A DNA stretch of 64,000 bases from Blastocatellia bacterium. GTDB lineage: Bacteria > Acidobacteriota > Blastocatellia > RBC074. This document shows positions 36,311 through 52,036 of this stretch, one piece after another. Location of the stretch: assembly GCA_043783625.1 (NCBI GenBank), contig JAYVZE010000017.1, positions 2,230 to 66,229 of the forward strand, given 5' to 3'. The number at the start of each line of letters is the position of its first letter. Within the stretch, counting starts at the first letter, position 1. The notes beneath the pieces were generated by a model, which made no database searches, was not told the DNA's origin, and saw only the letters and a list, made by a program, of their open reading frames with translations. A program made the position numbers and the translations under genes.

Positions 36311-39300
36311 TTACCGGATGATGACGGTGAAGCCGACTTCACCGGAATTATCCGGCGTAATCGAACTTAAATATCCTGCTGTTACTCGCCAGCGAACCGC
36401 TTTGACGTTGCGGTCATAATTCGTTGTTGTGCCACCGCCACCGTTGACAGGTGTGTACGTCCAGGTCGCTGCTGCTGGTGTTACCGAGTTATAATCATTT
36501 GAATATTCCACGACAATTGTCAGGCCAGTCGAACCCGGATCAGTGGTGACGGAGCCGATTTTAAAGTCCGTCACCAGTGGGATGGCATCAGTGAGGGTAA
36601 CTTGTTTCGCCAATGAACCTCCGGTGTTAGTGAACGTGATGCTATAAGTGAGTTCTGTTGCAGGCGGTTGTTCACCGGTTGGATTGACGGATTTGCGCAG
36701 TGTTAGACTTGGAGCGGTAACTGCACCGACCGTCACTGTAGTTGGATCAATAGTGGTTGCAATCGTCTGGGGAATTGAACCTACCGGGATTTTCATGTTA
36801 TATGGCGCAGAGGTCACTGTTGCAGACATATCAGAAGTTTGTCCGGCGTTATCAGTGTTAATTCCGGCGAGCGAGATAATGCTGCCGAACCCGGTCGCCT
36901 GATTTGCGATAGTTCCTGTGAATCCGGCATTCATCGTGACCGGAATCGTGATTGTGAATGCCCCGGTGATATTAAGGTTTGCTCCAGCGGCAATAAGATT
37001 ACTGAGCGCACCGCTGGCAGCTCCCGTATACGCTGGATTTTTACCACCGCCAGTTCCGCTGCCGGCGGCTAAGACTGTTTGTCCACCCGTCGTAGTGATG
37101 GTGATTCCAGTTGGAAGTTGATCGTTGATCTGGAAGTTCGTCACCAACGATCCAAGGTTAATATAGTGAATGGTGTAATTTAGTGTGTCGCCAGCCGAAA
37201 TACCTCCACTCGCATCAGCATCAGTGATGAGTTTGATGGATTTGTAAGCAGCAATATTGACCACAGGAGTGGATTCAAACGCACATCCCGCATTTGCAAC
37301 ACTGCCAGACGTATTTTCATTGGCGGCAGTGCAAGCAGTAATTGCGCCAGTGGTGGTGACAGTCGCTTTGTTCGGGTCGCCTCCACTAAAAACTTTCGCT
37401 TGATTGACGACATCAGTCGTGAGGGTGGCAGCGGCATTAATATTGAAAGCAAAGACGCTCGTGCCAGAGGTCGCAGCAATTGCCGTTGTGCTGGTACAGG
37501 TAATTGATTGTGGTGATATGGCGTCACTGTTACACGTCCAGTTGGCAGCTTGTGAGCCAGATAGAGTAACTAAGCCTGACGCCCCATTGTTGACGGTGAT
37601 GCCTGTTGGCAGCGTATCTTTAACGGAAGTCGTGCCGAACGTTACTCCGTTGCCGACATTGGTCACGGTCATCGTGTATGTCATGGATGCACCCGCTTGC
37701 ACTGAAGCAGGTGCAGTCTTCGCAAGCTTGAGGTCAGGCAATCCACTGACAATAAAAGTGGTCGCATCAATTGTTCCCGTAATGGTCTGGGCAACAGAGC
37801 CGGCAGGAATCGTTAAATTATAGGGCGCACTCGTCACCAGTGAAGGCAAGTCAACCGTTGTGCCTGCGTTATCGGACAGCACAGAGGAACTCAGAGCTGT
37901 CCCTGTCCCGCTTGCTTGATTGATAACTGTCCCGGAAAATCCAGTATTAACCCTGACCGGGATGGATACGGTAATCACTCCGCTTGCTGCGAGCGTTGCA
38001 CCTGATGCCAGGAGGTTGCTCACGGCGGCTCCGATTCCTCCGGTATACCCGGTATTGGCTGAAGCACTGGTTCCGCCGCCTGAAACCAGCACAGTTTGTG
38101 TTCCTGTGGCAGCGATGGAAATGCCTGCCGGAAGTAAATCAGTAATTTGGAAATTAGTGGAGTCGCCTGCTCCAGTGTTGGCGTATTGCAAGGTGTAAGT
38201 CAGGGTATCGCCTGCTGTAATTGTTCCACTACTATCCGCGTCAGTTGTGAGCTTGACCGATTTATAGGCAGTCACTAGCGGAAGGGCGACAATGGTGAGT
38301 GAATAGTCTTCGACTTCGCCGCTGGTGGCATTTCCAATGGAGGACTCGGCCTCCGCCTGGGTGTTGCTGAGGCGAAAGCGGGCATAAGTCGCGGCTGCTG
38401 TCATCCCTGCCGGAGTCGTGAAGCTGACATTTTGACTCCCCGAAGCAGTGACTATGACCGTCGCGGATTTCTCACCTGTATCAAGGAAATCACCGTCCTT
38501 ATTGAAGTCAATGTAACCGACCAGATACGACGTTCCCGACGGGTTGGTGACATTGACGGGAACTGTATATGTCTGTCCGGCTGTTGTGGTCAGCGCTGGA
38601 AAACTGGCGACACCATCTTCATCATCCGGGGTTCCGTTGTTGTCATCGCCGTTGGCTGCCACACTCGATTGTGCGCTCGACTCAGGATCAGGTCCTACAC
38701 TGCCAAGATAAGGAGCAGTTGGGATTAAGGTTGCCATCGTCAAACTGTTCACTGTCGTTGTCGTGGTCAGTTGCGAGCCGCCACTCGCAGTGCGCCGCGC
38801 ATAGTGATTAGGTGTGCCGAAGCTGGCCGGAGCATCTCCATAATCAAAGGGCGTCATGATTCCGAAGGCGACCGCTTGGCTTCCACCAGCGAGTACATTC
38901 ACGGAAATCTGATTGATATTTTGAGATAAAGCAAGAAGTGTTCCGCCACCGGTGTTGGTAAGGTCTTCTGTATAGAGAGTGCGTCCGCCATTAGAAAACT
39001 TTGCGGTTAAAACAGAACCCGGAGCTGCCTCAAGCGGTTGCCATGGAGTACCATCTGTCGTCCAGGTTAAGGATTCATTACTGTTACCCGTATCTTCTGC
39101 ATCGGCGGTTACAATATCGGCAGGGACAGCAACTCCATTGATGAGCACACTAAAACTAACATCGAAGGTGGGGTCTTCTGACGCCACAACGTTAAGTAAT
39201 CCGATTGGGTTAATCCCACCATACAAATCATCCAATTTGTCACCGCCCCAGTCCCCCACATTGTAAGGACGAATCGCTTTGGTAATATTCCTGATAGTGG

Positions 39301-40009
39301 CAGTGATAGTCGCTCCGGTGAGTGTCGTCCAGGTTTTTGTAATGGTATCTCCCGGATTAAATTGCGAAGTTGCGCCACAACTCCAATTCAACCAATAGAT
39401 ATTGTTGCGGTATACACCCGTACCAGATGGGGCAAGCACCGCAGTACCAGTCGGGCAGGTGAGTGATACAGGGGCTGCTGCCGGAGTGATGGAGGGAGCC
39501 AGAGCGCACGTAGTACAAGTGCCGGGAGCGACAGGCGTGCCAGTGGCTACCATTTCGAGCGAAGTGCCGCTTTGAAACATCGTCATCGCCGGAAAAATCT
39601 TAAATGGCGTAGTAAAGTTTTTCAGGTCAGGTGGAGGCATTGGTGCTTCGGAATTAGCCCTGAAATTGGTGGAGCGGTTCGCGGCAATCTTGGGTTCGCC
39701 TGTACTTTGCGTCATCCATTCATCAATGCCAATGGCTTTTTCTGCCATTGGCTTCGCTGCTTCCGCTGCTTTTGTTTCGATAGTTTTTGGCAGCCAGGAG
39801 CGGAACTTCGCCACGCCTCGCTGCGCAGTTGCTTCTGCGCCATGCACGAATGGCGTGGCATTAATGAGCATTGGCTGAATCAATAACAAGGTGACAATTA
39901 AGCGGTTGATGCTTTGTCGAAGTGATTCAGGTTTAGTGACCGCTACAAAAAATGAAAAAGTAAGTGAGACCGCACGGCGGCAAAGCAGAAGAGTGCTGGC
40001 TGAGTTCAT
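36311..40009 (-). CDS. Large secreted DUF11-repeat surface protein E (about 1,230 aa) with a GEVED-like domain and a distinctive C-terminal module.
   Basis: Signal-like 'LIVTLLLIQPMLINATPFVHGAEA'. 'YGDAPASFGTPNHY ... FNKDGDFLDTGEKS ... SGEVEDYSL' carries a literal GEVEDY motif. Several DUF11-type units ('AYKSVKL.TDAD.SG.I.AGDTL.YT', 'LP.GI'). C-terminus '...WTYTPVNGGGGTTTNYDRNVKAVRWRVTAGYLSSITPDNSGEVGFTVIIR'. ATG at 40009 preferred over TTG at 40030. Confidence 0.7.
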   Translation of the reverse strand: MNSASTLLLCRRAVSLTFSFFVAVTKPESLRQSINRLIVTLLLIQPMLINATPFVHGAEATAQRGVAKFRSWLPKTIETKAAEAAKPMAEKAIGIDEWMTQSTGEPKIAANRSTNFRANSEAPMPPPDLKNFTTPFKIFPAMTMFQSGTSLEMVATGTPVAPGTCTTCALAPSITPAAAPVSLTCPTGTAVLAPSGTGVYRNNIYWLNWSCGATSQFNPGDTITKTWTTLTGATITATIRNITKAIRPYNVGDWGGDKLDDLYGGINPIGLLNVVASEDPTFDVSFSVLINGVAVPADIVTADAEDTGNSNESLTWTTDGTPWQPLEAAPGSVLTAKFSNGGRTLYTEDLTNTGGGTLLALSQNINQISVNVLAGGSQAVAFGIMTPFDYGDAPASFGTPNHYARRTASGGSQLTTTTTVNSLTMATLIPTAPYLGSVGPDPESSAQSSVAANGDDNNGTPDDEDGVASFPALTTTAGQTYTVPVNVTNPSGTSYLVGYIDFNKDGDFLDTGEKSATVIVTASGSQNVSFTTPAGMTAAATYARFRLSNTQAEAESSIGNATSGEVEDYSLTIVALPLVTAYKSVKLTTDADSSGTITAGDTLTYTLQYANTGAGDSTNFQITDLLPAGISIAATGTQTVLVSGGGTSASANTGYTGGIGAAVSNLLASGATLAASGVITVSIPVRVNTGFSGTVINQASGTGTALSSSVLSDNAGTTVDLPSLVTSAPYNLTIPAGSVAQTITGTIDATTFIVSGLPDLKLAKTAPASVQAGASMTYTMTVTNVGNGVTFGTTSVKDTLPTGITVNNGASGLVTLSGSQAANWTCNSDAISPQSITCTSTTAIAATSGTSVFAFNINAAATLTTDVVNQAKVFSGGDPNKATVTTTGAITACTAANENTSGSVANAGCAFESTPVVNIAAYKSIKLITDADASGGISAGDTLNYTIHYINLGSLVTNFQINDQLPTGITITTTGGQTVLAAGSGTGGGKNPAYTGAASGALSNLIAAGANLNITGAFTITIPVTMNAGFTGTIANQATGFGSIISLAGINTDNAGQTSDMSATVTSAPYNMKIPVGSIPQTIATTIDPTTVTVGAVTAPSLTLRKSVNPTGEQPPATELTYSITFTNTGGSLAKQVTLTDAIPLVTDFKIGSVTTDPGSTGLTIVVEYSNDYNSVTPAAATWTYTPVNGGGGTTTNYDRNVKAVRWRVTAGYLSSITPDNSGEVGFTVIIR

Positions 40010-40297
40010 GTTGTACGTACCCCTACGCAAATAGACAGGGCTGAAAATCTAACGATGATGCATCCGAAGACTGTGGAATCGGAAAAACTGAAGTGGGAGA
40101 ATGAGGTAGCCGGATTAACTATGTCTTCAGGTTGGCGCCCGAAATGAGAGGTTGATGAACTACCCGTCCACTATCAAAAAAACATCGTATGAGTGAGCTG
40201 AGAAAGATTGTGAGTTGTTGACTACAGGGCTAAAGGCGAGAACAGTGTAATCAAAATGAAATAGATTGCAAGAAAAAATTTCAAACTGACCGAACCC

Positions 40298-40351: not shown

Positions 40352-40388
40352 ATCTATCAAGATAGTGAGTAGATATTTTTTGTAAGCG

Positions 40389-42836
40389 TTAACGAATTTT
40401 GACGGTGAAAGTGACATCGCCTGGAGTGCCTGAACTTAGGTTTCCAGCCGTTGTTCGCCATCGAATATGAGTAATATTTCGATCATAGTTGGAGGGCGCA
40501 CCTCCGGCTCCACTGGACGGGGTATACGTCCAGGTAACACCGCTATCGCTCGAATATTCAATGACGAAAGTCAATCCGGTGCTACCAACGTTGACGGCAG
40601 CGCCAGGGCTAACCTGATAATCGGTTGAGGTGGGGATCGGGTCAACGATTTGTACTTTCTGTGCGGCGACTCCACCGCTATTGGCAAAGGTAATTTTGTA
40701 ACTCAGGTCTGTTCCGGCTATCTGGTTGACAGTTTCGCACGTGGCGGGAGCGGTACAACTTTTGACCAAAGCGATTGCCGGAAGGCTTGAAATAATGACA
40801 TCTTCAGTGGTTGTTCCGGTGGCAGTTCCGTCATAATTTGAACCGCCCACACTGCCGGAGAAACTCCCGGTTTCATAGCTGGTATTGGTGGTGTAAGCCG
40901 TTCCTCCATTGGCTATACTGGTAGTTGCATTCGTGAACGGCTTCAGCACGCGGGCGGCAGTGGAACGGGTCGGATCAGCATAGGCAACGGTGGCCGGATT
41001 CTGATAAGTTCCATCGGCTGTCCCTGATGCAATATTGACCGTGAAGGTAATACTGACGGTTCCTCCGGCTGGAATATCAAGTGAATCCCAATGCAATGAT
41101 GTAGCAGCGGCAGCGGGTTTTGTGGTTAGTCCTGCGAGCGTGGCTGCCGTGGTAGTGCCAGCCAGATAAACGCCAGTACTCGCGGTAAAAGTTCCTGCCG
41201 AAGCAAAGGTGAAACCTGAAGGTAAACGCAAATCTGAAATACGAACAGCCTTCGCTGTGCCTGCTGTTGCGGCATTCGCCACTTGAATCGTGTAAGTCGC
41301 GGTTCCACCGGAAGGGAAGGGACCAGGCGTAGAAGTTGATTTTGTGACGGTCAGGGAAGGTAAGCAGCCTGCGCCTGAGGCTGTGCCCGTCGTTGTGACG
41401 GAAGCAGTTGTGACTCCATTTGTGCCATCAGCAGCTCCGTAGCTTTTGGGAGTCGTACTTCGATCCAGACCCGCAACGCCTTTAGTAACATTGGTCGAAA
41501 CTCCACCGTTAGCCGCGATAAATCCGCCGCCGCCGCCGCCGCCAGGGCCGTGTTCGAAATATCCTGAGCGACCACCGTTGCCCCCTTTAGCATTTGCGCT
41601 CAGACCACTTGTACCATTCGCTGACGAGATAGTGATGCTGCCGCCTGCGCCGCCGCCGCCGCCAGAATCAGTTTGACCTGAGGCAGGTAAGTCTAACGCA
41701 GCATTACCATTTGCATTAATCGTTCCACTTCCAGTGATTGCTCCGGCTCGGATTAATACAAGACCTCCGCCGTTTCCTCCACCCATGAGATACTCGTTGC
41801 CTGATGCACCTGCCGTACTGTTATTGCCATCACCAGCACCGCCGCCGCCGCCCATCACGATTTGTGAGCTTGAAGCCAGGAATGCTGAGCCTCCAAAACC
41901 GCCCTGAGCGAATCCATTGGGAGGGTTATTGGCAGCGATATTATTATGCCAGTTATTTCCGCCTATCCCGCCCGTGCCGCCATTAGCGCCGCCGCCGCCG
42001 CCGGCATTCAACCCATTATCTACGTTTGGCGCATAATCATTGGAGCCGCCACCAGCATTACCTGGCGCACCACGTCCGATGCTGCCTCCAGTATAATTAT
42101 CCGCGCCTGTCGCAGCCGTAGTGCCACCGTTAACACTTAACGGTGTTCCTGCGATTCCTTCGCCCTTCATTCCGCTGAAAGTGCGAGACGAAAGATATAA
42201 ATAATCTCCAGTTGCAGAGGTGATGCTTGTATCGCCTGTTTTTTGCAGCCCTGCACCACCACGAAACCCTTGTCCTGAAACGTCAATTGTACCAGAGAAG
42301 GTTAAAGTTCCAGTTGTGTCCAAAGCGACTACGCCGCCAGTCGTGCCATTCCAGACAGCGGCGGTGACAGTCCCGCTCACCGTGGCAGAGGAGTATTGCG
42401 GTACGCGAATGATTTGATAGGTTTGTCGGCTGGAAACGCTTTGCGTGTAGGTGTAGGTGAGAGAAGCCGCCAGCGTTAAGATCGAACCGGAGACCGTTTT
42501 GACGGTCGCATATTCATACCTGCCTGCGGCTGCATCTACGCCACTCCCATAAGAAGCAGAGTTTGAGAAGCTGACTCCGTTACCGCTTTGCATCTGCATC
42601 AGGATAATCAAATCGCCAACGGCAATGGCAGGTTTTGCCGCATCACGAATCGTCCCAAGTGTGACACTCGTACCTGAGGCCGTACTGGTTCCGGCATAGT
42701 AAGTATTGACGACACTCGTCAGGGTCGTGTTGATTCCATCTTTGCCGGGAGATGCACAAACCTGTGCGATGATCGGCATTGCCAGTAAAAATAAGAACAT
42801 TCCCACTGCGGCGAGAGCCTTGAATTTATTCCACAT
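40389..42836 (-). CDS. Secreted DUF11-repeat protein D (about 815 aa) with an approximately 200-aa Gly-rich beta-helix-like tract and the same C-terminal module as E.
   Basis: Signal 'MWNKFKALAAVGMFLFLLAMPIIAQ'. Gly-rich 'GGGGGANGGTGGIGG ... GGGGGAGGSITISSANG ... GPGGGGGGGF'. DUF11 units 'LTVTKSTSTPGPFPSGGTATYTIQVANA'. C-terminus '...WTYTPSSGAGGAPSNYDRNITHIRWRTTAGNLSSGTPGDVTFTVKIR'. Confidence 0.65.
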   Translation of the reverse strand: MWNKFKALAAVGMFLFLLAMPIIAQVCASPGKDGINTTLTSVVNTYYAGTSTASGTSVTLGTIRDAAKPAIAVGDLIILMQMQSGNGVSFSNSASYGSGVDAAAGRYEYATVKTVSGSILTLAASLTYTYTQSVSSRQTYQIIRVPQYSSATVSGTVTAAVWNGTTGGVVALDTTGTLTFSGTIDVSGQGFRGGAGLQKTGDTSITSATGDYLYLSSRTFSGMKGEGIAGTPLSVNGGTTAATGADNYTGGSIGRGAPGNAGGGSNDYAPNVDNGLNAGGGGGANGGTGGIGGNNWHNNIAANNPPNGFAQGGFGGSAFLASSSQIVMGGGGGAGDGNNSTAGASGNEYLMGGGNGGGLVLIRAGAITGSGTINANGNAALDLPASGQTDSGGGGGAGGSITISSANGTSGLSANAKGGNGGRSGYFEHGPGGGGGGGFIAANGGVSTNVTKGVAGLDRSTTPKSYGAADGTNGVTTASVTTTGTASGAGCLPSLTVTKSTSTPGPFPSGGTATYTIQVANAATAGTAKAVRISDLRLPSGFTFASAGTFTASTGVYLAGTTTAATLAGLTTKPAAAATSLHWDSLDIPAGGTVSITFTVNIASGTADGTYQNPATVAYADPTRSTAARVLKPFTNATTSIANGGTAYTTNTSYETGSFSGSVGGSNYDGTATGTTTEDVIISSLPAIALVKSCTAPATCETVNQIAGTDLSYKITFANSGGVAAQKVQIVDPIPTSTDYQVSPGAAVNVGSTGLTFVIEYSSDSGVTWTYTPSSGAGGAPSNYDRNITHIRWRTTAGNLSSGTPGDVTFTVKIR

Positions 42837-42863
42837 GTATTTGACCTGTCTGAATCCCGACAC

Positions 42864-43175: not shown

Positions 43176-43210
43176 ACTTGTTAAGGAACCTGTCAAAAAT
43201 AAGATTAAAC

Positions 43211-43243
43211 GAATCCCCCTCCTGTTTCAGGAGGGGGATTCGT
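43211..43243. terminator. Hairpin terminator 4 nt downstream of the giant gene C (GAATCCCCCTCCTG tttc AGGAGGGGGATTC).
   Basis: 13-14 bp GC-rich stem. Confidence 0.65.
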
Positions 43244-43247
43244 AACT

Positions 43248-46200
43248 TTACTTGTTTTCAGGAGCCGGTGTTGCCGGAGCTGGCGTCGCTGCCGGAGTGG
43301 TCGCTGAAGGTGATTGAATAGGTTCGTTACCGACCAGTCCTTCACGCGAAGTTCCGAACAAATTGAACATATTCGAGAGCTTCGAGGACACCACGAAATA
43401 GAAACCCTTACGAGTATTTAATCCGCGTGAATCAAAGCCGCCGAAGTAGCCGGCATTTTCAGTCATGCGGGTAAAGTTGTAACCACCCGCGAGGCGTAAG
43501 TCAGATAAAGCCCAGAAGCCTACTTCAGCACCTGCTGAGAAGCGTCGTGATGAAACTCCACTCAACCACAGGGAGCGAACTTCACCCGCGACATCAAAGA
43601 ATTTAGCCAGGCGTAATTCAGCTCGTCCTTGTAATAACATTGTCATCGTCGAAGCGAGCGGTAAATTGGCGCTGCCATTTGAGCCAAATTTCAGTGCATA
43701 ACGCCCATACAACTCTAAACGTCGTAATGGTTGATAAAGTCCGTCCGCTGCCAGAATGTCATCACGATCACGAGTTGACGCAAAACTGGAGACAGCGCTT
43801 TGATTGATGGAACGATGCGTGTAGCTAAACAACATGGCGGCGCGGTCTGATTCCAGCGGTCTCCAGGAGGCGGCGAGCTGCCCGTTCATCATTTCGTTAT
43901 TCTGATTTTGGAAAGCAGTACGCGAATACTGGAAGCGACCGAGAGTTGTAAAACTCGCTGATAATTTTCCGGCGGCGCCGACTGTGAAAATGTTGCCAAA
44001 ACCATTGAGGTCACGCAATTCATAACGTGCGGCCGAATGGAAGCTATCGGTCGGATTATAACTGGCTCCAAACATTGCGTTATTGAAGCTCTGTCCGTTA
44101 CCTTTCAAATGCATTCCGCGTTCGTATCCGGCATCCAGTGAAAACGTCTTACTTAATGGAAAGCGGTTCATTAATCCAACGACAGCGAAACTGTCAGTTC
44201 CATTGATGCCGTTGTTGATTTGGTAGCGTCCGCTCATGGTCGTGTATTTGCTCAGCGGAGATTCGACTCCGATAGCGGTTTCACGCCGTGAAGCAGTTTC
44301 AGCAAATCCGGTTGAGCTTAAATCACTGATGGCGCTGATGGCTTGTGAAGCTAATCGTTGCGTAAAGAAAATCTTTGCCAGTGAACTCACCTGATAGCTG
44401 GCTGCGATAGTCGTTTGATCTGGATACGAAGGGTCGGCAGTACCAACGTTTTGCTCGCGCTTGACAGAAATTTGTAATTTGCCGGTCGGGCGATATTCTG
44501 CGCCTGCGGTCACTAAGTTAGAGGTGACACTGCGCCCGGCGAAAGAATTCGCAGTGGCTGGCGTGGTCGTTCCCGCTGTGCCATTCGTATCTGCATTCGT
44601 ATTTGCCTGATTCGCCAGCACGCTGCCGGATGAATCGGTAAAGGTGCGATAATCATAACCAAGACTCACACGAAGTTTGTCGCCGAAAGATTTAATCAAG
44701 CCGACAGAACCAGTTTGGCGAGTGTTATTAAACGTCGCAGTTTTGTTTCGTTCATCAGTGAAACCCAAACGCATTTGCATTGAAGGACGTGGTTTGAAAT
44801 CCAGTGCGACGGTTCCGCGTTGCGATCCAGGTGACACCGTTGAACCAAAAGGATTAAAAAACGATTGATCTGATTTTCCGAAGCTGGCTTGTAACTGAGC
44901 TTCGGCAAAATTCAACGGTTGACGATATTCCGCACGGAAGGCGTTGCCGTTATGTTCACCGTTACCACTGTTCAGGCTTCCGGCTAATCCGTCATAACCG
45001 AAGTAGCTGCCTGTTGAAGCAACACGACCGTTGCTCATCCCCCATTCAAATTGGAACGTTCCGCTCTTCCCGATTTTCTTCTCAACGTCTACGCCGCCGA
45101 GATAGAACGAGCCATAATTTTCCTGACGTTGGTCAATGAATGAAGTTCCAACGCGTAACCCCATCCGGCTGAAATTCTTCGAGCCGCGTGCGGTGTAGAC
45201 TGCCGAATTCATTGCGACTGAGCGGTATTCATAGGTCGTGACAACCTGCACCAGATTCAGCGCATAATCAAAAGCTGACAGCGGACGCATAAAGTAGATC
45301 GAACCAAGATAAGGGTCAATATTGTAATCCACTGAACGGACCAGGACTTCACGTTGCAGAATAATGTCAGGGTTACGACGATCACGGACTTCGCGCATGA
45401 CTGTCTCAGTTCCTTGCAAAACATCAGTATGGGAAAGTCGAATCAATCCGAAGCTACTGCCCGGGAAGACATCACGAGCAAAAGCGGTGTCAGGTCGTGC
45501 GCCAGTCACAGTGATGGAACTGCCGCCTTCACTTTCGAGATGGATTTTAACCCCGGTGAGGCGACGACTGTAACCCGTCAGTTGCGGCCCTTGAGCGGCG
45601 AAAACCGGGACGGAATTAAAGTTATTAATGATTGAATTACCGATTCCTGAACTGGCTAAATTCTCAGCCAAATTGGTCAGCGGAGTTGGTGTGAAGCCAT
45701 TATTGATATACTCCTGTTGATTCGCATTGAAATCACCGAACATCGCGTAAGAGCGGCCTTTATCAATCCGGGCATATAGTTTGGAATTTGATTGCGCATC
45801 TTCAAAGCGAGTTGAAGAATCTCCGAAAATTGGATAGACCCGATCAAGCGGATCAAGGAAGAAAGAGCGATCACGTCCGGCGGTGCGGGTCAACGCACGG
45901 TAGCTGTTATAGGCCAACGTCAGTTGTGCCTGTTTGATGAGCGGGGTGCGATAGAAAAATTCGACGTGATGGTTGTAATTTTTGTCGCCACCGCGTAGCG
46001 CTACTTCAGGTGCCGCTTTACCGAAAGAAGCTTCGGCTAATCCGACGAGAATTTGCGGACGCATTTCAGGCGTGAAGCGAATGTCACGCTGGACTTTTAA
46101 CTCACCGGAGAAGGCGCGGATTTCTGCATTTCCGGGCTGACCTTCACCGACGAGTTCGACCAATGCTTCACCGTTTTCGAGCGAAATAATTTGTTGGCGG

Positions 46201-49200
46201 TTCGTGGCATTGACCTGCTCCGAAGAGAAACCATTGATCGGCTCGCTCCCTGCGCCAAGTAACGGGGAGCGAAGTTTTTCGACTTCTTCGTGGCTCAGTC
46301 CACGAAGTTTTGCGAGAGCTGTAAGGCAATCATTTTCTTCCTGCTTTGTTGCGAAGCTGCCGCGCTCGCAACGTTGACCGGAAAGTGCTGGAGGAGCTTC
46401 GACCGGATTGCCAGCCGCATCTTTGGCAGGTTCTTTGATTGCGACGGGAGAAGTATTAGAGTCAGTCAATCGCAGCAGGCGTCCCGCTGAGACTTGAATG
46501 CCAACTTGTCCACTGGCGGCTGGATTGCCCCATTGGTCAAAGCCTTTGACACGGACAATGGTTGAATCGCGCCCGCCGGATTGGACTTCTTTTTTATCCG
46601 TGACGATTTCCAGACGTGTGACCGGACCGCGTCCCATCACCGATAAATTCTGTGATTGAGCCGGAACTCCGTTTTGATCAACGGCAGTCACTTTAATTTC
46701 ATTTGGTCCCGGTTTCAGAACGATACCGACATACACAAAGGTGGCGATTTTATTTTTCTTGTCTACTTCTTTGACGCCGATGTTCGTTTCAGGAATACGC
46801 TCTCCGTTAACTTCCAGCGCGACCACGTAGTCCATGTGAACCCGCGCTTCGACGCGCAGCGCATTTTCCATAATGACTTCTTTGGCTTCCGGCGAAAGAA
46901 CTTTGATTTCTCCGGCAGCCACAGGTTCGATGTTGTCAGTGGAAATATCCGTATAGGTTCCAGGTGTGCGATAGCCTCCCTTACCGACATTCATCGCGGC
47001 TAATCCGGCGCGGGTTTTCGGGCCGCGGGCGCGACTCAGGACTCCATCCAAAGCACCACCGGAAGCAATGTCATTTTTTGAGCTGGCATTTTTTCGAGCC
47101 TTGCTCTGACGTGATCCGGCTTTACCTTTGACTTTATTTTCATCCGACTTTTCAGCTTCGGCTGCTTCCGCTGTCGGTTTGGCCGGAGCACCTGCCACAG
47201 GTTTGGCAGGTGCCGCAGGAGCACCCGCAATACCTGGTGCGCCGGGCGCACCCGGAGCACCCGCTGCAACGCCAGCAAAGACTCCGGTTTCAACGCCGCC
47301 TTCAATGTCGGTCACAGCTTCCGTGATGGGGTTGCGCGTTTTTTCCAGCACAAAGTTTTGACGATTCAATCCGCCGCCGCCAAGTGGAGTGCGAACCAGA
47401 CGAGTCCAACTGCGATGTGCTTTAAGCTTGCTATCCAGCAAACCATAGCCGCGCGGGACGGTGAATGGATCAAGGGTCAGCGAGGTTGCACCTTCTTCAA
47501 TGGAAGGGAAGTTATACATTCCCTTGGAATCAGTGATAACTGAAGTACCATTGTTAAGATACACGCGAACACCCGCGACAGGGCGATCACATTTTTCGAA
47601 TAATCCGTTCCCGTTCGTGTCTTCAAAGACGCGCCCGATGATGATCTGACGCATTGAGAACTGCCCCATTCCAACTAAGACGGGAGCTTTTACGGCTGGT
47701 GTCGTGATGGGATCACCGTTAGGATAAACTCCTGTCGCTACCACCGAATTGACTTGTTCCCCTTGTTTGGCATTAGCACCGACGCGCAAGCGATAGGTGA
47801 CGGTGACTCTGCCGCCGCCCGCTAAATCTCCAATATTAAAAACCATCTGATTGTTGGACACAGTCGGCTCGATAGCAAAGGCAGGTGTGCCATCAACTTG
47901 TACCCGCGCTGTACCGGGGACATAGCTAAAAGAGAGCGGTAAAGTGTCTCTCAATTGAACGGCAGTGAATTTCTGCGCCGTAGAATTTTGTGCTTCGAGA
48001 CGATACGAAATCATTTCGCCAATTTCTGCTCGCTGCTTATCAGCGACTTTCGTCAACTGCAAGGTAGTTGTCTCAAACATTGGGATATTCAAAACCACTG
48101 CGGCAATATCGAAGAGGGAAACATTTGTATTTGAAAGTTTGAAGCTGCCAGCCTGTGAAATCGGCTGTCCGTCGGCTGAAATTACATCAACGGTGTAAAG
48201 ATCAGGATTGGTTGGGCTGGGCTGAATTTTTATTTCAACCAGACGCGAACGATAGCCTTGTGCTGCGACATTGACGAAATACGTGACAGGCGCACCGGGG
48301 GCACCGACCTGATTGGCTCCCAGGGTAAAACTGAAGTGACCCTGAGCATCAGTCGTGAACGGATTACTATTCGTCGGGTTCGGATCAAATCCACCTGTCG
48401 GAACAGGTAATAAATTCAGTCCATCTTTGTCTGTGGTCAAAGTGACTTTCGCATTGGGGATCGGTACCGAGCCATTGCTGTATCCGGCATAAACTGTTCC
48501 CACCGGATTAATCACGACTTTGGTTTTTGAGGTTTTTATGGCAGTTCCGATGTTATCGCCAGAGACTTGCGCCGTATTAATAATCCCCACTCCGGGAATA
48601 ACGTTGTCATTCAGCTTCGCCTGAAAAGTGACAGAAACAATTTGATCTGGATCAACTTTCGCTAATTTGATCTCAAGGCGACGACCATTAATAATCTGGC
48701 CTTCGTCAGTATCGCTGATATCGGTCAGTGAAGTTGTTCCCAGTTTCAGTGTTCCCGACACATAATCAATTTGAGCCGGAAGATCATCAGACAATAAAAT
48801 ATTAATCGCTGGAACCTGACCACGATTTCGGAAACTGATGGAATAGGTCACGACACTACCCGCCGTAGAAGTAAATTGATCCTTGTTTTCGACTAATTTA
48901 ATTGGCGGTAAAGAAGGATTAGCGGGGTCCGTAATTCTCGCTGGCTCTCCGGTTTTGCTGATGATGGTTCCGTCGTCTTTTTGTGGGCCATTGTTGCTGG
49001 GCGCGTTTGTTTTGACAGTAATCCCAATCGTGACAGGATCATCTTTAGCGACGTTGCCTGTGTCAATGACGGCGAGAATTCCAATACATTCACCGGGAGG
49101 AATTGTCGGGCTGGCAGTTTGATTCAACGTGATGGCAAGATCCGCTGGAGTTACTGTCCCGCTGCCGTCAATGTCCCAATACATCGCAACCAATGAAGAA

Positions 49201-49556
49201 GGCGTAGAAACTGTACTACGGGTGAGGGTAAAGGTATCAGGCGTATTTCCGATGTTGCAGGCGCGGAACACACGTGTCACGGTCTCATTTGCTAAAACTA
49301 CCCCGGAAGATTGTGGATCATCTGGAGTGACAACGATTCCAGTAATCGCCACAACTGTAATTGAGACGATGGGAGAAGAAATCACAAAGTCTTTGCCGCT
49401 TGGATCTTGATAGCTTGCGCGGGCCTGGTTTTTGATGACGACTCCGGCGGAGATGCCACCTGTGACGGGAGTTGCTTCCTTTTGTGCGATGGCTGAAGTC
49501 GCACCGGCTGCAATTAAGACCGCAAAGATGAGGTAGGTGTTAATAAGTCTAAGCAT
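43248..49556 (-). CDS. Giant outer-membrane/surface protein C (about 2,100 aa). Domain order: signal, DUF11 and Cna-B/carboxypeptidase-regulatory-like repeats, Pro/Ala-rich linker, Ig-like (Big) domains, C-terminal beta-barrel-like region of about 900 aa, Thr/Pro/Ala tail.
   Basis: Signal 'MLRLINTYLIFAVLIAAGATSAIAQ' from ATG at 49556 (TTG 49595 is an alternative). 'VIKNQARASYQDPSGKDF' DUF11 end-motif. 'GVRVYLNNGTSVITDSKGMYNF' Cna-B-like. Linker 'AGAPGAPGAPGIAGAPAAPAKP' near 47.1-47.3 kb. The last approximately 900 aa (nt about 43350-46060) show alternating hydrophobic strands that often end in aromatic residues ('LRLGFTDER', 'VSLGYDYRTF', 'LDAGYERGMHL', 'LYGRYALKF', 'AELRLAKFF', 'AEVGFWAL', 'LAGGYNFTRM', 'GFYFVVSSKLSNMFNLF'). 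Confidence 0.75.
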   Translation of the reverse strand: MLRLINTYLIFAVLIAAGATSAIAQKEATPVTGGISAGVVIKNQARASYQDPSGKDFVISSPIVSITVVAITGIVVTPDDPQSSGVVLANETVTRVFRACNIGNTPDTFTLTRSTVSTPSSLVAMYWDIDGSGTVTPADLAITLNQTASPTIPPGECIGILAVIDTGNVAKDDPVTIGITVKTNAPSNNGPQKDDGTIISKTGEPARITDPANPSLPPIKLVENKDQFTSTAGSVVTYSISFRNRGQVPAINILLSDDLPAQIDYVSGTLKLGTTSLTDISDTDEGQIINGRRLEIKLAKVDPDQIVSVTFQAKLNDNVIPGVGIINTAQVSGDNIGTAIKTSKTKVVINPVGTVYAGYSNGSVPIPNAKVTLTTDKDGLNLLPVPTGGFDPNPTNSNPFTTDAQGHFSFTLGANQVGAPGAPVTYFVNVAAQGYRSRLVEIKIQPSPTNPDLYTVDVISADGQPISQAGSFKLSNTNVSLFDIAAVVLNIPMFETTTLQLTKVADKQRAEIGEMISYRLEAQNSTAQKFTAVQLRDTLPLSFSYVPGTARVQVDGTPAFAIEPTVSNNQMVFNIGDLAGGGRVTVTYRLRVGANAKQGEQVNSVVATGVYPNGDPITTPAVKAPVLVGMGQFSMRQIIIGRVFEDTNGNGLFEKCDRPVAGVRVYLNNGTSVITDSKGMYNFPSIEEGATSLTLDPFTVPRGYGLLDSKLKAHRSWTRLVRTPLGGGGLNRQNFVLEKTRNPITEAVTDIEGGVETGVFAGVAAGAPGAPGAPGIAGAPAAPAKPVAGAPAKPTAEAAEAEKSDENKVKGKAGSRQSKARKNASSKNDIASGGALDGVLSRARGPKTRAGLAAMNVGKGGYRTPGTYTDISTDNIEPVAAGEIKVLSPEAKEVIMENALRVEARVHMDYVVALEVNGERIPETNIGVKEVDKKNKIATFVYVGIVLKPGPNEIKVTAVDQNGVPAQSQNLSVMGRGPVTRLEIVTDKKEVQSGGRDSTIVRVKGFDQWGNPAASGQVGIQVSAGRLLRLTDSNTSPVAIKEPAKDAAGNPVEAPPALSGQRCERGSFATKQEENDCLTALAKLRGLSHEEVEKLRSPLLGAGSEPINGFSSEQVNATNRQQIISLENGEALVELVGEGQPGNAEIRAFSGELKVQRDIRFTPEMRPQILVGLAEASFGKAAPEVALRGGDKNYNHHVEFFYRTPLIKQAQLTLAYNSYRALTRTAGRDRSFFLDPLDRVYPIFGDSSTRFEDAQSNSKLYARIDKGRSYAMFGDFNANQQEYINNGFTPTPLTNLAENLASSGIGNSIINNFNSVPVFAAQGPQLTGYSRRLTGVKIHLESEGGSSITVTGARPDTAFARDVFPGSSFGLIRLSHTDVLQGTETVMREVRDRRNPDIILQREVLVRSVDYNIDPYLGSIYFMRPLSAFDYALNLVQVVTTYEYRSVAMNSAVYTARGSKNFSRMGLRVGTSFIDQRQENYGSFYLGGVDVEKKIGKSGTFQFEWGMSNGRVASTGSYFGYDGLAGSLNSGNGEHNGNAFRAEYRQPLNFAEAQLQASFGKSDQSFFNPFGSTVSPGSQRGTVALDFKPRPSMQMRLGFTDERNKTATFNNTRQTGSVGLIKSFGDKLRVSLGYDYRTFTDSSGSVLANQANTNADTNGTAGTTTPATANSFAGRSVTSNLVTAGAEYRPTGKLQISVKREQNVGTADPSYPDQTTIAASYQVSSLAKIFFTQRLASQAISAISDLSSTGFAETASRRETAIGVESPLSKYTTMSGRYQINNGINGTDSFAVVGLMNRFPLSKTFSLDAGYERGMHLKGNGQSFNNAMFGASYNPTDSFHSAARYELRDLNGFGNIFTVGAAGKLSASFTTLGRFQYSRTAFQNQNNEMMNGQLAASWRPLESDRAAMLFSYTHRSINQSAVSSFASTRDRDDILAADGLYQPLRRLELYGRYALKFGSNGSANLPLASTMTMLLQGRAELRLAKFFDVAGEVRSLWLSGVSSRRFSAGAEVGFWALSDLRLAGGYNFTRMTENAGYFGGFDSRGLNTRKGFYFVVSSKLSNMFNLFGTSREGLVGNEPIQSPSATTPAATPAPATPAPENK

Positions 49557-49754
49557 AAAATGTGCCGAACCCTTCTTCTCTAGTTTGTAAATCAATCGTA
49601 AGTCAGTAGTTTCAAATCAATGAATTCGGGAACCGGAATTCTGGGTTGCTGAAATAAACGCTTCAGTGTGACGCTTCGGGTGGCAATCGGGTGGCTGAGA
49701 TAGATTGCGGAAGCGTACGTGTTTAAGCGAAAGTTTCAAGCTTTGGTTATTAAG

Positions 49755-49792
49755 AGAAAGCAGGTTGGCTCAGGCGAGCCAACCTGCTTTCT
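49755..49792. terminator. Hairpin terminator downstream of gene B (AGAAAGCAGGTTGGCT caggcg AGCCAACCTGCTTTCT).
   Basis: 16-bp stem, located 15 nt after the stop of 49808-51352. Confidence 0.6.
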
Positions 49793-49807
49793 GAGCAATG
49801 ATCAAAA

Positions 49808-51352
49808 TTAAGGTTTGATCTTACGGGTGAAAGTCAGTGTTCCGACTTTGGTTCCAGCTAATGTTCCAATGCTGGCAACGTATTTGGCTTGCGCCACTGC
49901 ACCTGTGCTGGCGCTAACGACCGGCACTACTACCGTTCCATCATTGTTGGCAGCTTCACCTGCCACGTAGTTGGTGGCTCCGGCCCAGTTATTAGCACCG
50001 GCATCACCATCTTCAGTGATGACGACTAATTGCGCAGGAAGATCAACGCTGCCTGATCCTGTCGGAGCAGCCGAAACGTTGGTGGCAGTCACGGTGTACT
50101 GAATGTCAGCGCCTGGAACCGGATCAGTCGCTGCACCAACGCCAGTGGCGTTGACAACGGTAGCTGTTTTCAAGAGCCTCAGATAACCGGGGAACAGACG
50201 ATCAATCGTGTTATTGGTAATCAATGGATCCATTACTGAACAGACCGTGATGACGGTGTCATAACCAGCTTCGGTAACAACTCCGGTAGGAAGTGTGACG
50301 CGAACCTTATAGTTCAGACTTGAACCCGCTGCGACCGCCGCAGTGGTGACCATTGGTGTCGCAGTTGGTGCACCGGCTAAAACAACAGTCGTGTAAGTTG
50401 CACCGCCATCAATGCTGATTTCGACGGTTGATCCGGCTGGATAAGTACCAGCACCAGTGGCAGGTTTAATCGTGAATGTTTCCGGGCCGTTGCCAGAGTT
50501 CTTCAAAGTATTATCGAAGACAGTTGGAGTCGTCGGAGCATTTGGATCAACCGCTTTATTGGTGTAATCCGTATTCAGGTTCGCTGGCGCAGCACCTGGA
50601 CCTGTGGCGTTTGGCGCACCATTTGGACCATTCTGAACCATTGGCACGTTGCTGACATTTAGTACTACCGCACCCTTGGCTTCTTTTTCAGGGCCGGTGA
50701 TCGTAATGCCTCCCGGTGCGCTGGTCGAAACTTCATGTATCGACGAATCCTTAGTTTGGTTGTCAAACCCAGTGCCTGTGGTGGTATCGCCGAGTGAAAC
50801 GGTGAGGGCTGCACCTGCAATGGCGGCTGTGTCAACTGTGACAGTGACGACAACCTTTTTGGTTGCGCCCTGGGCAATCAATTGATCTACTGCGGCGGCA
50901 TTGCCCAGGATGTCAATGTCGCCAGCACCAAATGTGCCGTTGCCATCGTTATCAATGAACGCTGAGGCTACGGTTCCAGGCCCGCTGAGCTGAACACTTG
51001 CACCACTTGGCAGGAAGTGAGCGTTGTTCGAGAAGTTGCCCAGATTGTTGACATCGAATGTAAAGGTTGCCGTTGAACCGGGTGCCGGTGTTGGCGCACC
51101 AGTAGCAGGTGCTGTCTGATCCGGTGTGATCGACAAGCCGGCGACATACGCGACAGTGGTGACGACTTCATTCGATGTCGTGTTGTACTTTAATGGAGTT
51201 AACGGATCGTCTGTATAGGTCGCGGACGCTTTGTTTTTGATTTGTGTTCCGCCAGCGGTTGCAGTTGATTGTGCAAGTGCGGAAGTAGCTAACGAGGCGA
51301 GGACAACAGCGCCGATCAGCACCTTTCCCCAAATATTAATTTTGCTCTTCAT
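49808..51352 (-). CDS. Secreted DUF11-repeat protein B (514 aa) with Thr/Ala/Pro-rich segments.
   Basis: Signal 'MKSKINIWGKVLIGAVVLASLATSALAQ'. 'IKNKASATYTDDP ... SNEVVTTVAYVAG' DUF11 end-motif as in C. AGGAG Shine-Dalgarno upstream of the ATG. Confidence 0.6.
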   Translation of the reverse strand: MKSKINIWGKVLIGAVVLASLATSALAQSTATAGGTQIKNKASATYTDDPLTPLKYNTTSNEVVTTVAYVAGLSITPDQTAPATGAPTPAPGSTATFTFDVNNLGNFSNNAHFLPSGASVQLSGPGTVASAFIDNDGNGTFGAGDIDILGNAAAVDQLIAQGATKKVVVTVTVDTAAIAGAALTVSLGDTTTGTGFDNQTKDSSIHEVSTSAPGGITITGPEKEAKGAVVLNVSNVPMVQNGPNGAPNATGPGAAPANLNTDYTNKAVDPNAPTTPTVFDNTLKNSGNGPETFTIKPATGAGTYPAGSTVEISIDGGATYTTVVLAGAPTATPMVTTAAVAAGSSLNYKVRVTLPTGVVTEAGYDTVITVCSVMDPLITNNTIDRLFPGYLRLLKTATVVNATGVGAATDPVPGADIQYTVTATNVSAAPTGSGSVDLPAQLVVITEDGDAGANNWAGATNYVAGEAANNDGTVVVPVVSASTGAVAQAKYVASIGTLAGTKVGTLTFTRKIKP

Positions 51353-51511: not shown

Positions 51512-52036
51512 TTACTTGACGCGAACTTTGTATGAAGCCGAAAATTGCTTACCTTCAGTAAGCGGGTCATTCCATTCGTAGCGAATCCGGGTGTACATAG
51601 AAACGGGTGCTGCTACTTTTTTGGTTGAGCCGTCAGGTTGCTTTTGGTCAATCATTGGCTTTTCATCGAAGGTTTTACCGTCATCAATGCTGTAAACGAT
51701 TTTGACACTGCCTTCTGCTTTGGCACTGCTGGCAACGTAGGCTGTCCCGGTCGGAATTTCACCAACGGTTTTGTAATTTTGGGCGGGAGTCGTTCCCGCA
51801 TTCATGGAGGTGATCGTCCAGTTCAAAACTTCGCCGGGGTTCAGGTTGCCGGCTTTTTCAACATCGACAGGTTTGTTTTCGCGGGTCACTGTTCCCAGTA
51901 AGGAAATTTTGACATCCGGGCGAACGAGCGTAGCGATGGCGTTAGCAATCGAATTGCGTTGTGCAAAAGCACTGCCAGCGACAACGAATAACGCGATTAA
52001 AGTGATCGAAGATAATTGTGATTTAAGGTTTTTCAT
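51512..52036 (-). CDS. Small secreted single-DUF11-domain protein A (174 aa).
   Basis: Signal 'MKNLKSQLSSITLIALFVVAGSAFAQ'. 'PGEVLNWTITSMNAGTTPAQNYKTVGEIPTGTAYVASSAKAEGS' fits the DUF11 core (G..v.Y.itv.N.G...A.nv.v.d.lP.G...v). Confidence 0.6.
   Translation of the reverse strand: MKNLKSQLSSITLIALFVVAGSAFAQRNSIANAIATLVRPDVKISLLGTVTRENKPVDVEKAGNLNPGEVLNWTITSMNAGTTPAQNYKTVGEIPTGTAYVASSAKAEGSVKIVYSIDDGKTFDEKPMIDQKQPDGSTKKVAAPVSMYTRIRYEWNDPLTEGKQFSASYKVRVK

Follow-up and report, generated by a model that had tools for sequence, protein, structure and literature searches.

We describe a 2102-residue acidobacterial protein, here called protein C, that joins an adhesin-like stalk to a predicted outer-membrane barrel of about 36-40 strands belonging to an uncharacterised family, and that is encoded within a gene cassette, conserved across several phyla, which looks like an undescribed machine for exporting and anchoring surface fibres. 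The gene lies on the minus strand of a 64,000-nucleotide window from Blastocatellia bacterium (GCA_043783625.1, contig JAYVZE010000017.1, positions 2,230 to 66,229). A first-pass annotation made from the sequence alone had noted N-terminal adhesin-like repeats, a C-terminal region of about 900 residues with the periodicity of beta-barrel strands, and a 35-residue Thr/Pro/Ala tail, and this observation is confirmed by our analysis. Its interpretation, that of a passenger and giant barrel arranged as in type Va autotransporters, is only partly supported, as the genomic context of the gene points to a different reading.

Anatomy of protein C

The open reading frame runs from 43248 to 49595, and the ATG at 49556 yields 2102 amino acids beginning with MLRLINTYLIFAVLIAAGATSAIA|Q, a normal Sec signal peptide whose position is conserved in orthologues. 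Pfam and NCBIfam searches of the N-terminal half identified CLIPPER (DUF11) domains in two stretches, with a PF01345 score of 68.5 bits against a cut-off of 24.6 and a TIGR01451 score of 78.3 bits, as well as an SdrD_B (CnaB-like) domain, TIGR04226 and a weak Ig-like match at residues 982-1023. K503, D537 and N603 of the second CLIPPER domain align with the Lys, Asp and Asn-806 positions of the isopeptide triad in PDB 9IFR, although formation of the bond is inferred from this alignment alone. The weak Ig-like match falls within the region directly N-terminal to the barrel, where Invasin_D3 and Big_1 domains were found in 9 and 5, respectively, of 32 barrel-only relatives, and a family profile searched against the PDB matched invasin (1cwv) and GH2 Ig domains.

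The stalk and the Big-like domains are separated by a low-complexity linker whose position, but not composition, is the same in orthologues. The GAPGAPGAPG run that the first-pass annotation called collagen-like is present at about residues 767-776, and TRF finds a 9-nt period at 47218-47263, but it is only part of this 110-residue Ala/Gly/Pro/Lys segment and is not collagen-like in any meaningful sense. The Thr/Pro/Ala tail is likewise real, but it is not unusual within the family. All 47 aligned homologues that reach the C-terminus carry a tail of 9-40 residues, one of 159 residues, following a conserved GFYFTISSKLSNLFDLFGTSxxGL motif, and in most of them the tail is charged rather than Thr/Pro/Ala-rich. 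In protein C the tail is modelled with a pLDDT below 50, and the conserved motif forms a short helix after the last strand (model positions 901-904). In a relative, P0278, an OmpA peptidoglycan-binding domain occupies the position of the tail, which is thus simply a predicted periplasmic C-terminal extension, as in OmpA or the ushers.

Features of protein C and of its gene cassette (window coordinates; all on the minus strand)
Feature	Position	Residues of protein C
Sec signal peptide (...TSAIA|QKE)	49482..49556	1-25
Stalk of Ig-like domains	47280..49481	26-759
Conserved mature N-terminal two-strand element SAGVVIKNQARASYQDPSGKDFVISSPIVSITV with an invariant Asn (candidate donor strands)	49353..49451	36-68
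DUF11/CLIPPER, first	48555-48890	223-334
DUF11/CLIPPER, second	47727-48062	499-610
SdrD_B	47445-47633	642-704
Low-complexity Ala/Gly/Pro/Lys linker, including GAPGAPGAPG	46947..47279	760-870
Big/invasin-D3-like Ig domains	46062..46946	871-1165
Giant predicted outer-membrane beta-barrel domain, about 36-38 transmembrane strands	43380..46061	1166-2059
Small beta-rich insert (candidate plug) with family-invariant motifs TGARPDTAFARDVFPG, EVRDRRNPD and SVDYNID	45291..45518	1347-1422
Conserved post-barrel motif SSKLSNMFNLFGTSREGLV	43335..43391	
Variable, disordered C-terminal tail, predicted periplasmic	43251..43355	about 2068-2102
Perfect 16-bp hairpin 5 nt after the stop codon, from a terminator scan (probable terminator or attenuator)	43209..43243	
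g174, small secreted single CLIPPER-like domain protein, first gene of the cassette	51512..52036	
g514, secreted Ig-like protein ending in a truncated CLIPPER-like domain (candidate shaft subunit)	49808..51352	
g824, AgmC_N-like glycine-rich domain, CLIPPER and conserved C-terminal domain (candidate tip adhesin)	40389..42863	
g1239, CshA_NR2, GEVED, CLIPPER repeats and the same C-terminal domain as g824 (candidate tip adhesin)	36311..40030	

Structure prediction and comparison with known barrels

The C-terminal 900 residues are predicted to form a transmembrane beta-barrel far larger than that of an autotransporter, in agreement with the first-pass annotation. AF2 models contain 41-46 strands over residues about 1165-2059. 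An initial model was mediocre (pLDDT 67.7), whereas one built with a 120-sequence alignment reached a pLDDT of 79.8 and a pTM of 0.78. In this model DSSP assigns 41 strands of 7 or more residues, of which about 4-5 probably form an inserted domain, leaving an estimate of 36-38; as these figures derive from strand assignments rather than from inspected coordinates, closure of the barrel, the exact strand number and the location of the insert stand as predictions. The insert appears as a cluster of short strands (model positions 188-263) following the sixth long strand and coincides with invariant columns in family alignments and in the conservation profile, and its role as a plug is inferred. 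Foldseek, one of the comparisons proposed in advance as a test of the barrel reading, ranks the 30-strand SlpA first (8agd, 8ae1 and 7zgx; E about 5e-8 to 1e-7), followed by MtrB, TonB-dependent transporters, LptD and FimD. A motif resembling the outer-membrane beta-signal is present in the last two strands, LRLAGGYNF and then RKGFYFVV. Additionally, relatives yield sporadic sub-threshold matches to OMP_b-brl, Porin_7 and DUF5777.

We consider it very unlikely that this region is instead a soluble or surface beta-rich array mis-modelled by AlphaFold. Hydrophobic alternation within strands is only moderate, exceeding shuffled sequences on average with a mean z of 0.82 over 41 strands and values above 1.5 in 11 of them. 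However, pTM rose with the deeper alignment, membrane barrels are the only structural neighbours apart from one low-probability Foldseek hit, and the domain consists of long strands of 10-17 residues joined by turns of 2-5 residues, has a GYNF/GFYF beta-signal-like end and contains no cysteines in 886 residues.

Sequence searches did not place the barrel in an established family. No autotransporter, usher, LptD, SprA or TonB-dependent-receptor model matched, even at E<=10. The absence of an Autotransporter beta-domain (PF03797) or IAT_beta match, together with a barrel about three times too large, argues against a type Va autotransporter, whose barrel has 12 strands. Like type Va and type Ve (intimin/invasin) proteins, protein C combines Ig-like adhesin domains and an outer-membrane barrel in one polypeptide, with a linker that may lie in the pore and, as in intimin, Big/invasin-D3 domains next to the barrel; its domain order, however, is opposite to that of intimin, in which a 12-strand barrel precedes the Big-domain passenger, and it has conserved accessory genes. 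A highly derived TonB-dependent (Oar-like) transporter, in which a plug and an enlarged barrel would be energised by TonB-ExbBD for nutrient import or protein secretion, is also very unlikely, as neither Plug (PF07715) nor TonB_dep_Rec matched at E<=10 in five members, including one labelled a TonB-dependent receptor by PGAP. LptD is found only among weak structural matches. Protein C likewise shows no Pfam or PDB sequence match to the SprA/Sov translocon of the type IX secretion system, SprA is not among the 60 structural matches listed for the better model, and none of the cassette genes matches a T9SS component (PorV, Plug or GldLMN). Furthermore, the system occurs outside Bacteroidota and its stalk is fused to the barrel.

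Among the closest described counterparts, by architecture, are the predicted large OMBB superfamily of 38-40-strand barrels (Solan et al. 2021, PMC8346858) and the three 38-stranded barrels of Deinococcus radiodurans with N-terminal invasin-D3 domains (PMC9388160, Table S3); published members are AAF11946, UID71982 and UID69687. Features that appear to be shared are a giant barrel, predicted here as a single one with an estimated 36-38 strands, immediately preceded by invasin-D3/Big-like Ig domains, the lack of a known function and occurrence in deep-branching diderm bacteria. In the sections consulted, neither paper mentions a fusion to CLIPPER stalks, the conserved cassette or the terminal strand motifs.

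A conserved cassette with fused and split relatives

The family is large, comprising 3800 clusters at 50% identity, and occurs in Acidobacteriota, Sericytochromatia and other cyanobacteria, Eremiobacterota, Verrucomicrobiota and Proteobacteria. The gene encoding protein C is not an isolated element. In 58/58 related Blastocatellia loci it follows g174 and g514, CLIPPER-like proteins of 174 and 514 residues, in that order, and in 56/57 a CLIPPER adhesin lies downstream. Homologues of g174 form 618 clusters, and homologues of 154-172 residues are present in four distant cassettes. The N-terminal domain of g514 is paralogous to that of protein C, with 33% identity to residues 9-148. The domain order of g1239 matches that of the fibrillar adhesin described in PMC12617251, and CLIPPER domains form the stalks of fibrillar adhesins (PMC12617251). 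The same cassette order is found in Sericytochromatia, in two metagenomic lineages and on an Acinetobacter haemolyticus plasmid, where a separate OmpA gene follows the barrel gene. Two-gene modules, in which a giant DUF11 protein is followed by a barrel protein with a 4-nt overlap, occur in Sinorhizobium and Phyllobacterium.

Relatives also separate what protein C fuses. In Sericytochromatia the counterpart of the proposed passenger is a separate protein ending in three SLH domains. In L081, one of the cassettes with a split arrangement, a 1288-residue protein is collinear with the stalk of protein C (27% identity, E 3e-41), ends in FlgD_ig and three SLH domains at the position held by the linker in protein C, and is followed by a barrel-only gene. 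Barrel-only members are common. A self-contained autotransporter-like adhesin, exported through its own barrel and displayed on the surface, with the neighbouring genes as independent adhesins, is a reading in line with the type Va comparison of the first-pass annotation and finds support in the N-terminal passenger, C-terminal barrel and signal peptide of a single polypeptide, and in a disordered linker that could lie in the pore, but the invariant synteny and the split relatives, together with the barrel size and the failed profile matches, render it unlikely.

These variants also bear on a second reading, in which the barrel is an outer-membrane porin or tether of the SlpA/OmpM type, the Ig-like portion remains in the periplasm as a spacer between outer membrane and cell wall, and the CLIPPER neighbours are unrelated cargo of other pathways. 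SlpA is the best Foldseek match, the SLH and OmpA modules of relatives point to peptidoglycan attachment, and both ends of a barrel normally face the periplasm. However, the TM-score to SlpA is only 0.29, and protein C itself has no SLH, OmpA or coiled-coil module, SLH domains being found only in the separate stalk proteins of L081 and a second cassette, L083. Additionally, we infer that a rod of 740 residues of Ig domains is longer than the gap between the outer membrane and the peptidoglycan, the conserved partners include proteins with adhesive head domains (CshA_NR2, GEVED) that must reach the surface, and CLIPPER domains are typically extracellular (PMC12617251). We regard this reading as unlikely.

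A proposed pore and anchor for CLIPPER fibres

Our best reading, to which we assign a probability of roughly 0.55, is that protein C is a dedicated outer-membrane pore and anchor for folded CLIPPER fibres, with the fused stalk as the basal subunit. The predicted fold class, the family size, the synteny, the fusion and fission variants and the conserved terminal motifs are shown by the analysis, whereas the direction of threading, the role in export, the mode of assembly and the formation of isopeptide bonds are inferred, from sequence and structure prediction alone. The SLH and OmpA modules of relatives are equally compatible with a periplasmic scaffold or tether in which the stalk never leaves the periplasm.

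The conserved IxNxAxAxY strands at the mature N-terminus suggest assembly by strand complementation. This motif is present in 61/64 protein C orthologues, in 61/63 g514 orthologues and in five distant cassettes, but is lacking in the alphaproteobacterial two-gene modules, and it resembles the isopeptide-Asn strand of CLIPPER domains. The terminal domains, in turn, stop at position about 81-86 of the 114-position DUF11 profile. Appending the N-terminal peptide extended the alignment to about 103-110 and added 2-6 bits in three of four cassettes, whereas a shuffled control lost score. These gains are small, are absent in one of the four cassettes (L085), and are weak for the N-terminus of protein C itself (+2-3 bits, with no extension of the alignment). 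The first-strand Lys is not conserved in g174 homologues of other phyla, and the N-terminal strands could simply pack against the protein's own first domain. Donor-strand complementation combined with an intermolecular isopeptide bond has a precedent in archaeal thread filaments (Sulfolobus; PMC9715654), which have no outer-membrane pore, and the chemistry proposed here is also that of the engineered SpyTag/SpyCatcher split domain.

The operon logic resembles that of chaperone-usher pili, with a small subunit gene, further subunits, the outer-membrane pore gene, and then adhesins possessing a head domain and a C-terminal pilin-like domain. As in those systems, N-terminal strands may complete an incomplete Ig fold, a small beta domain may be inserted after about the sixth barrel strand, as with the usher plug, and a base subunit would be retained in the pore. 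However, no match to Usher (PF00577) was found, the predicted barrel has about 36-40 strands rather than the 24 of FimD/PapC ushers, the subunits are CnaA-like CLIPPER domains and the base subunit is fused to the pore. No PapD_N/C match was found in g174, g514, g824 or g1239, and the cassette encodes neither a chaperone nor an energy source.

In the proposed mechanism, CLIPPER domains fold and become cross-linked in the periplasm and so would need a wide pore, which the giant barrel would provide while holding the fibre. The N-terminal 740 residues, a rod of Ig-like domains joined to the barrel by the disordered linker and two or three Big-like domains, would be threaded outward with the linker in the lumen and the base fixed on the periplasmic side, whereas in relatives the base would instead be fixed to peptidoglycan by SLH or OmpA modules. 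The other cassette proteins would attach head-to-tail, the truncated C-terminal CLIPPER-like domain of one subunit being completed by the N-terminal strands of g514 or of protein C and possibly locked by a Lys-Asn isopeptide bond. By this logic, g514, which has both donor and acceptor elements, would be the shaft, g824, g1239 and g174, which have acceptor elements only, would be tips or a cap, and protein C would be the base and pore of a conserved, so far uncharacterised surface-fibre system built from CLIPPER Ig-like proteins.

Architecture of protein C and its predicted outer-membrane barrel

The first-pass annotation had described the product of a single long ORF, protein C, as adhesin-like repeats followed by a C-terminal region with beta-barrel periodicity and a Thr/Pro/Ala tail, and this observation was confirmed. 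Translation from the ATG yields a 2102-aa protein with a typical Sec signal peptide, within which Pfam and NCBIfam place two CLIPPER/DUF11 domains, an SdrD_B (CnaB-like) domain and a weak Ig-like hit, together with a hit to the isopeptide-fimbrial model TIGR04226 (see table). The GAPGAPGAPG run, which had been read as collagen-like, is part of a low-complexity Ala/Gly/Pro/Lys linker whose composition varies between orthologues, and the collagen-like reading was rejected. Searches of Pfam, NCBIfam and the PDB sequence set returned no match to the C-terminal region, even at E<=10 or with a family profile.

Table. Positions of protein C, its domains and neighboring features; residue numbers refer to protein C.
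Feature	Position in the window (nt)	Strand	Residues	Description
LolA-like gene	52392-53039	+		Divergently adjacent to the cassette
g174	51512-52036	-		Secreted; single CLIPPER-like domain
g174-g514 gap	51353-51511			159 nt
g514	49808-51352	-		Secreted Ig-like protein
g514-protein C gap	49557-49807			251 nt
Protein C ORF	43248-49595	-		ATG at 49556
CLIPPER/DUF11			223-334	Pfam and NCBIfam
CLIPPER/DUF11			499-610	Pfam and NCBIfam
SdrD_B (CnaB-like)			642-704	Pfam and NCBIfam
Low-complexity linker			760-870	Ala/Gly/Pro/Lys; contains GAPGAPGAPG
Weak Ig-like hit			982-1023	
C-terminal region without sequence matches			about 1165-2102	Predicted barrel and tail
Hairpin after protein C	43209-43243			Perfect, 16 bp, GC-rich; 5 nt after the stop codon; weak T tail
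Protein C-g824 gap	42864-43247			384 nt
g824	40389-42863	-		AgmC_N-like domain plus CLIPPER
g824-g1239 gap	40031-40388			358 nt
g1239	36311-40030	-		CshA_NR2, GEVED and CLIPPER repeats
Second hairpin	36211-36238			Follows g1239
M36 protein	4251-9611	+		Secreted, 1786 aa; M36 fungalysin metallopeptidase, TIG domains and Kelch beta-propeller
BACON protein	59376-63854	-		1492 aa; large surface-type protein with five BACON repeats
DUF7948 protein	1024-3885	-		953 aa; large surface-type protein with DUF7948 and SBBP beta-propeller repeats

The C-terminal region is predicted to be a very large outer-membrane barrel. A first AlphaFold2 model of residues 1130-2102, built from 50 sequences, was mediocre (pLDDT 67.7, pTM 0.54) but already showed 32 long strands at pLDDT 80-90. 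A second model of residues 1160-2075, built from 120 sequences that included relatives at 20-29% identity from other phyla, reached pLDDT 79.8 and pTM 0.78. In this model DSSP assigns 41 strands of 7 or more residues, comprising six long strands, a cluster of short strands at model positions 188-263, corresponding to residues 1347-1422, and then 31 long strands joined mostly by turns of 2-5 residues. If the short cluster is an inserted domain, the predicted barrel would have about 36-38 strands, an estimate that rests on DSSP strings rather than on coordinates and presumes that the barrel is closed. Foldseek ranks the 30-strand Deinococcus SlpA first (E about 5e-8, TM 0.29), followed by MtrB, TonB-dependent transporters, LptD and FimD. 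The only non-barrel among the listed matches is a low-probability hit to ApoB100 (rank 39, probability 0.35), and no solenoid or sandwich array, which had been set beforehand as grounds for refuting the barrel interpretation, appears among them, so that this condition for refutation is not fulfilled. Hydrophobic alternation within strands exceeds that of shuffled sequences on average (mean z 0.82 over 41 strands), and the 886-residue region contains no cysteine.

The last two strands carry beta-signal-like motifs, LRLAGGYNF and then RKGFYFVV. These are followed by a conserved SKLSNLFDLFGTSxxGL motif, predicted as a short helix, and by a variable hydrophilic tail of 9-40 aa in the aligned homologues that reach the C-terminus; the Thr/Pro/Ala composition is specific to this lineage. 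Some orthologues carry much longer extensions after the barrel, exemplified by locus L016 and protein P0117, one being a low-complexity Pro/Ala-rich stretch and the other a 159-aa Ig-like domain. Another relative, P0278, has an OmpA peptidoglycan-binding domain right after the barrel. This places the predicted C-terminus in the periplasm, as expected for an outer-membrane protein, and the tail, which had been considered unusual, is therefore an ordinary periplasmic extension rather than an anomaly.

Distribution of the family and organization of the cassette

A profile search of 1.84 billion representatives found 3800 clusters at E<=1e-3 and 1805 at E<=1e-30, many of them proteins of about 1100 aa that consist of Ig-like domains plus the barrel. 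Among the GTDB species-representative genomes, 295 matching stretches encode a relative; the 80 loci kept are almost all labelled Blastocatellia, Pyrinomonadaceae or Acidobacteriota MAGs, the closest being 92-94% identical, which places the window in Blastocatellia. More distant members come from Sericytochromatia and other Cyanobacteriota, Eremiobacterota, Coraliomargarita (Verrucomicrobiota) and Usitatibacter, and others lie on plasmids of Acinetobacter haemolyticus, Kovacikia, Synechococcus sp. NIES-970, Sinorhizobium meliloti and Phyllobacterium. Cultured carriers include Acinetobacter haemolyticus w12 on plasmid p4 (LIS44_16300-16330), Sinorhizobium meliloti T073 (CDO28_RS34120/34125), Coraliomargarita sp. 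SDUM461004 (QEH59_05770) and Synechococcus sp. NIES-970 on plasmid1 (NIES970_28240). All are annotated as hypothetical, as DUF11 proteins or, without Pfam support, as "TonB-dependent receptor".

The gene encoding protein C is the third of five co-directional genes, preceded by g174 and g514 and followed by g824 and g1239. Among related loci with enough flanking sequence, 58/58 have g174, g514 and protein C in that order, and in 56/57 a g824- or g1239-like gene lies downstream on the same strand. The same order recurs in distant lineages. Homologues of g174 of 154-172 aa are 24-31% identical across phyla, and the family has 618 clusters; an apparent conserved N-terminal extension in g174 was rejected, since in other phyla the aligned segment is the signal peptide. 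The N-terminal half of g824 is a Gly-rich region that scores 158 bits on the AgmC_N gliding-motility model, below the cut-off of 275. The intergenic gaps within the cassette are unusually long for an operon, and the hairpin that follows the stop codon of protein C, itself followed by the gap before g824, may end or attenuate a g174-g514-C transcript. The divergent LolA-like gene keeps its position in only 11 of the 14 closest loci (63-83% identity) and not in more distant loci, and is thus probably not part of the system.

Three architectures were found. The stalk and barrel are fused in protein C, in the distant cassettes L085 and L086, and on the Acinetobacter plasmid, where a separate OmpA gene follows. 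They are split in two further cassettes, L081 and L083, in which a protein of 1288-1418 aa is followed by a barrel-only gene; the L081 protein is collinear with the stalk of protein C (27% identity, E 3e-41), and the L081 and L083 proteins both end in FlgD_ig plus three SLH domains. Finally, in two-gene modules of Sinorhizobium and Phyllobacterium, a DUF11 protein of 3362 to about 3550 aa overlaps by 4 nt the start of a barrel protein of 1261-1278 aa. In the Phyllobacterium sp. 628 plasmid (locus L088, 6744-14322), the barrel homologue, labelled "TonB-dependent receptor" by PGAP with no Pfam support, lies next to a siderophore-interacting protein gene and exbB, exbD and tonB. A linkage to ExbBD-TonB was nevertheless rejected, as it was seen in this one plasmid only; the Sinorhizobium module lacks these neighbors. 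The barrel is therefore a dedicated partner of CLIPPER proteins, and the complex, as judged from the SLH and OmpA modules, is tied to the cell wall in several lineages.

Terminal motifs and a proposed mechanism

Protein C and g514 share a paralogous N-terminal domain (33% identity), and five to twelve residues after the signal-peptide cleavage site both carry G-T-x-I-x-N-x-A-x-A-x-Y-x-D...S-N-x-V-x-V-T-V. This motif is present in 61/64 protein C orthologues and 61/63 g514 orthologues, as well as in the second and third gene products of five distant cassettes. At the other end, g174, g514, g824, g1239 and their distant counterparts all terminate 0-2 residues after a strand of the form h-x-F-x-V-x-I-[RK]; g824 and g1239 share a C-terminal domain of about 150 aa (45% identity) that also resembles g174. 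Where Pfam recognizes these terminal domains, the match to DUF11 stops at profile position about 81-86 of 114. To test whether the N-terminal peptide could supply the missing part of the domain, the peptide of a g514-type or C-type protein was appended to it. This extends the DUF11, DUF7619 or DUF7927 alignment across the junction to about position 103-110 and adds 2-6 bits in the window (g824 with the g514 peptide), in L081 and in L086, whereas a shuffled peptide loses about 1 bit; L085 shows no extension, and the peptide of protein C itself gives only +2-3 bits. In the intact CLIPPER domain of protein C, K503, D537 and N603 align with the isopeptide Lys, Asp and Asn-806 of PDB 9IFR, and the invariant Asn of the N-terminal motif sits in the same sequence context. 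While the motifs and alignments are observed, strand complementation in trans, possibly locked by an intermolecular isopeptide bond, is an inference from them with modest support, for which archaeal threads provide a precedent (PMC9715654).

We propose, likewise by inference, that the giant barrel is the outer-membrane pore and collar for a fibre of folded CLIPPER domains. These domains carry isopeptide bonds and often disulfides, which are reported in 79% of acidobacterial isopeptide domains (PMC12617251), and they probably fold in the periplasm and therefore need a wide pore. In this view the stalk of protein C would be the basal subunit, its base held on the periplasmic side by fusion to the barrel, or by SLH or OmpA modules in relatives; g514, with both donor and acceptor elements, would form the shaft, and g824, g1239 and g174, with acceptor elements only, would be tips or a cap. 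The operon logic resembles that of chaperone-usher pili, and the pore size resembles that of SprA, but the family matches and partner genes tested for membership of the usher and SprA families were absent, so that the system would work like them without belonging to them. Assignments to the autotransporters, LptD and the TonB-dependent receptors were rejected on the same grounds. The interpretation offered in the first-pass annotation is thus partly supported: a giant barrel holds at the level of prediction, but the autotransporter-like reading is replaced by a proposed multi-component CLIPPER-fibre export and anchor system.

Relation to known systems and significance

A superfamily of predicted barrels of 38 and 40 strands has been reported from contact maps (PMC8346858), and three 38-stranded Deinococcus radiodurans barrels with N-terminal invasin-D3 domains, AAF11946, UID71982 and UID69687, are listed without a function (PMC9388160, Table S3); the latter match the barrel-only members found here in a comparison of architecture alone. 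Literature searches found no description of the cassette: a search on AgmC returned nothing relevant, and one on DUF11 and pili returned only archaeal tafi and Chloroflexota grappling hooks, which are not this system. The cassette is best placed among known barrel-mediated adhesin and pilus systems, as a variant of them. A more far-reaching reading, tentative but with a real chance of being correct, is that it represents a previously unrecognized pilus or adhesin biogenesis pathway of diderm bacteria. Here a barrel of about 38 strands would act as a chaperone-less "usher" wide enough for folded, cross-linked Ig domains, and the fibre would be built from split CLIPPER domains, the N-terminal strands of one subunit completing the truncated C-terminal domain of the next. 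The invariant donor Asn would form an intermolecular isopeptide bond with the acceptor Lys, a natural SpyTag/SpyCatcher-like ligation that needs no sortase, and the base subunit would be either fused to the pore or tied to peptidoglycan by SLH or OmpA modules.

Blastocatellia and Pyrinomonadaceae, the groups that dominate the hits, are common soil bacteria whose surface structures are, so far as is known, essentially unstudied. CLIPPER fibrillar adhesins are widespread in Gram-negative bacteria, but how they cross and stay attached to the outer membrane is not described in the dedicated CLIPPER survey consulted, the main text of which has no occurrence of "outer membrane" or "barrel" (PMC12617251); a dedicated wide pore would answer this question. 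SprA, with 36 strands, is the largest outer-membrane barrel solved so far, and barrels of 38-40 strands exist only as predictions with no assigned function; tying one such family to a conserved CLIPPER-adhesin cassette across at least five phyla gives these barrels a testable role. If the split-domain model is right, it would be a new pilus assembly principle in bacteria, and could also provide natural peptide-protein ligation pairs.
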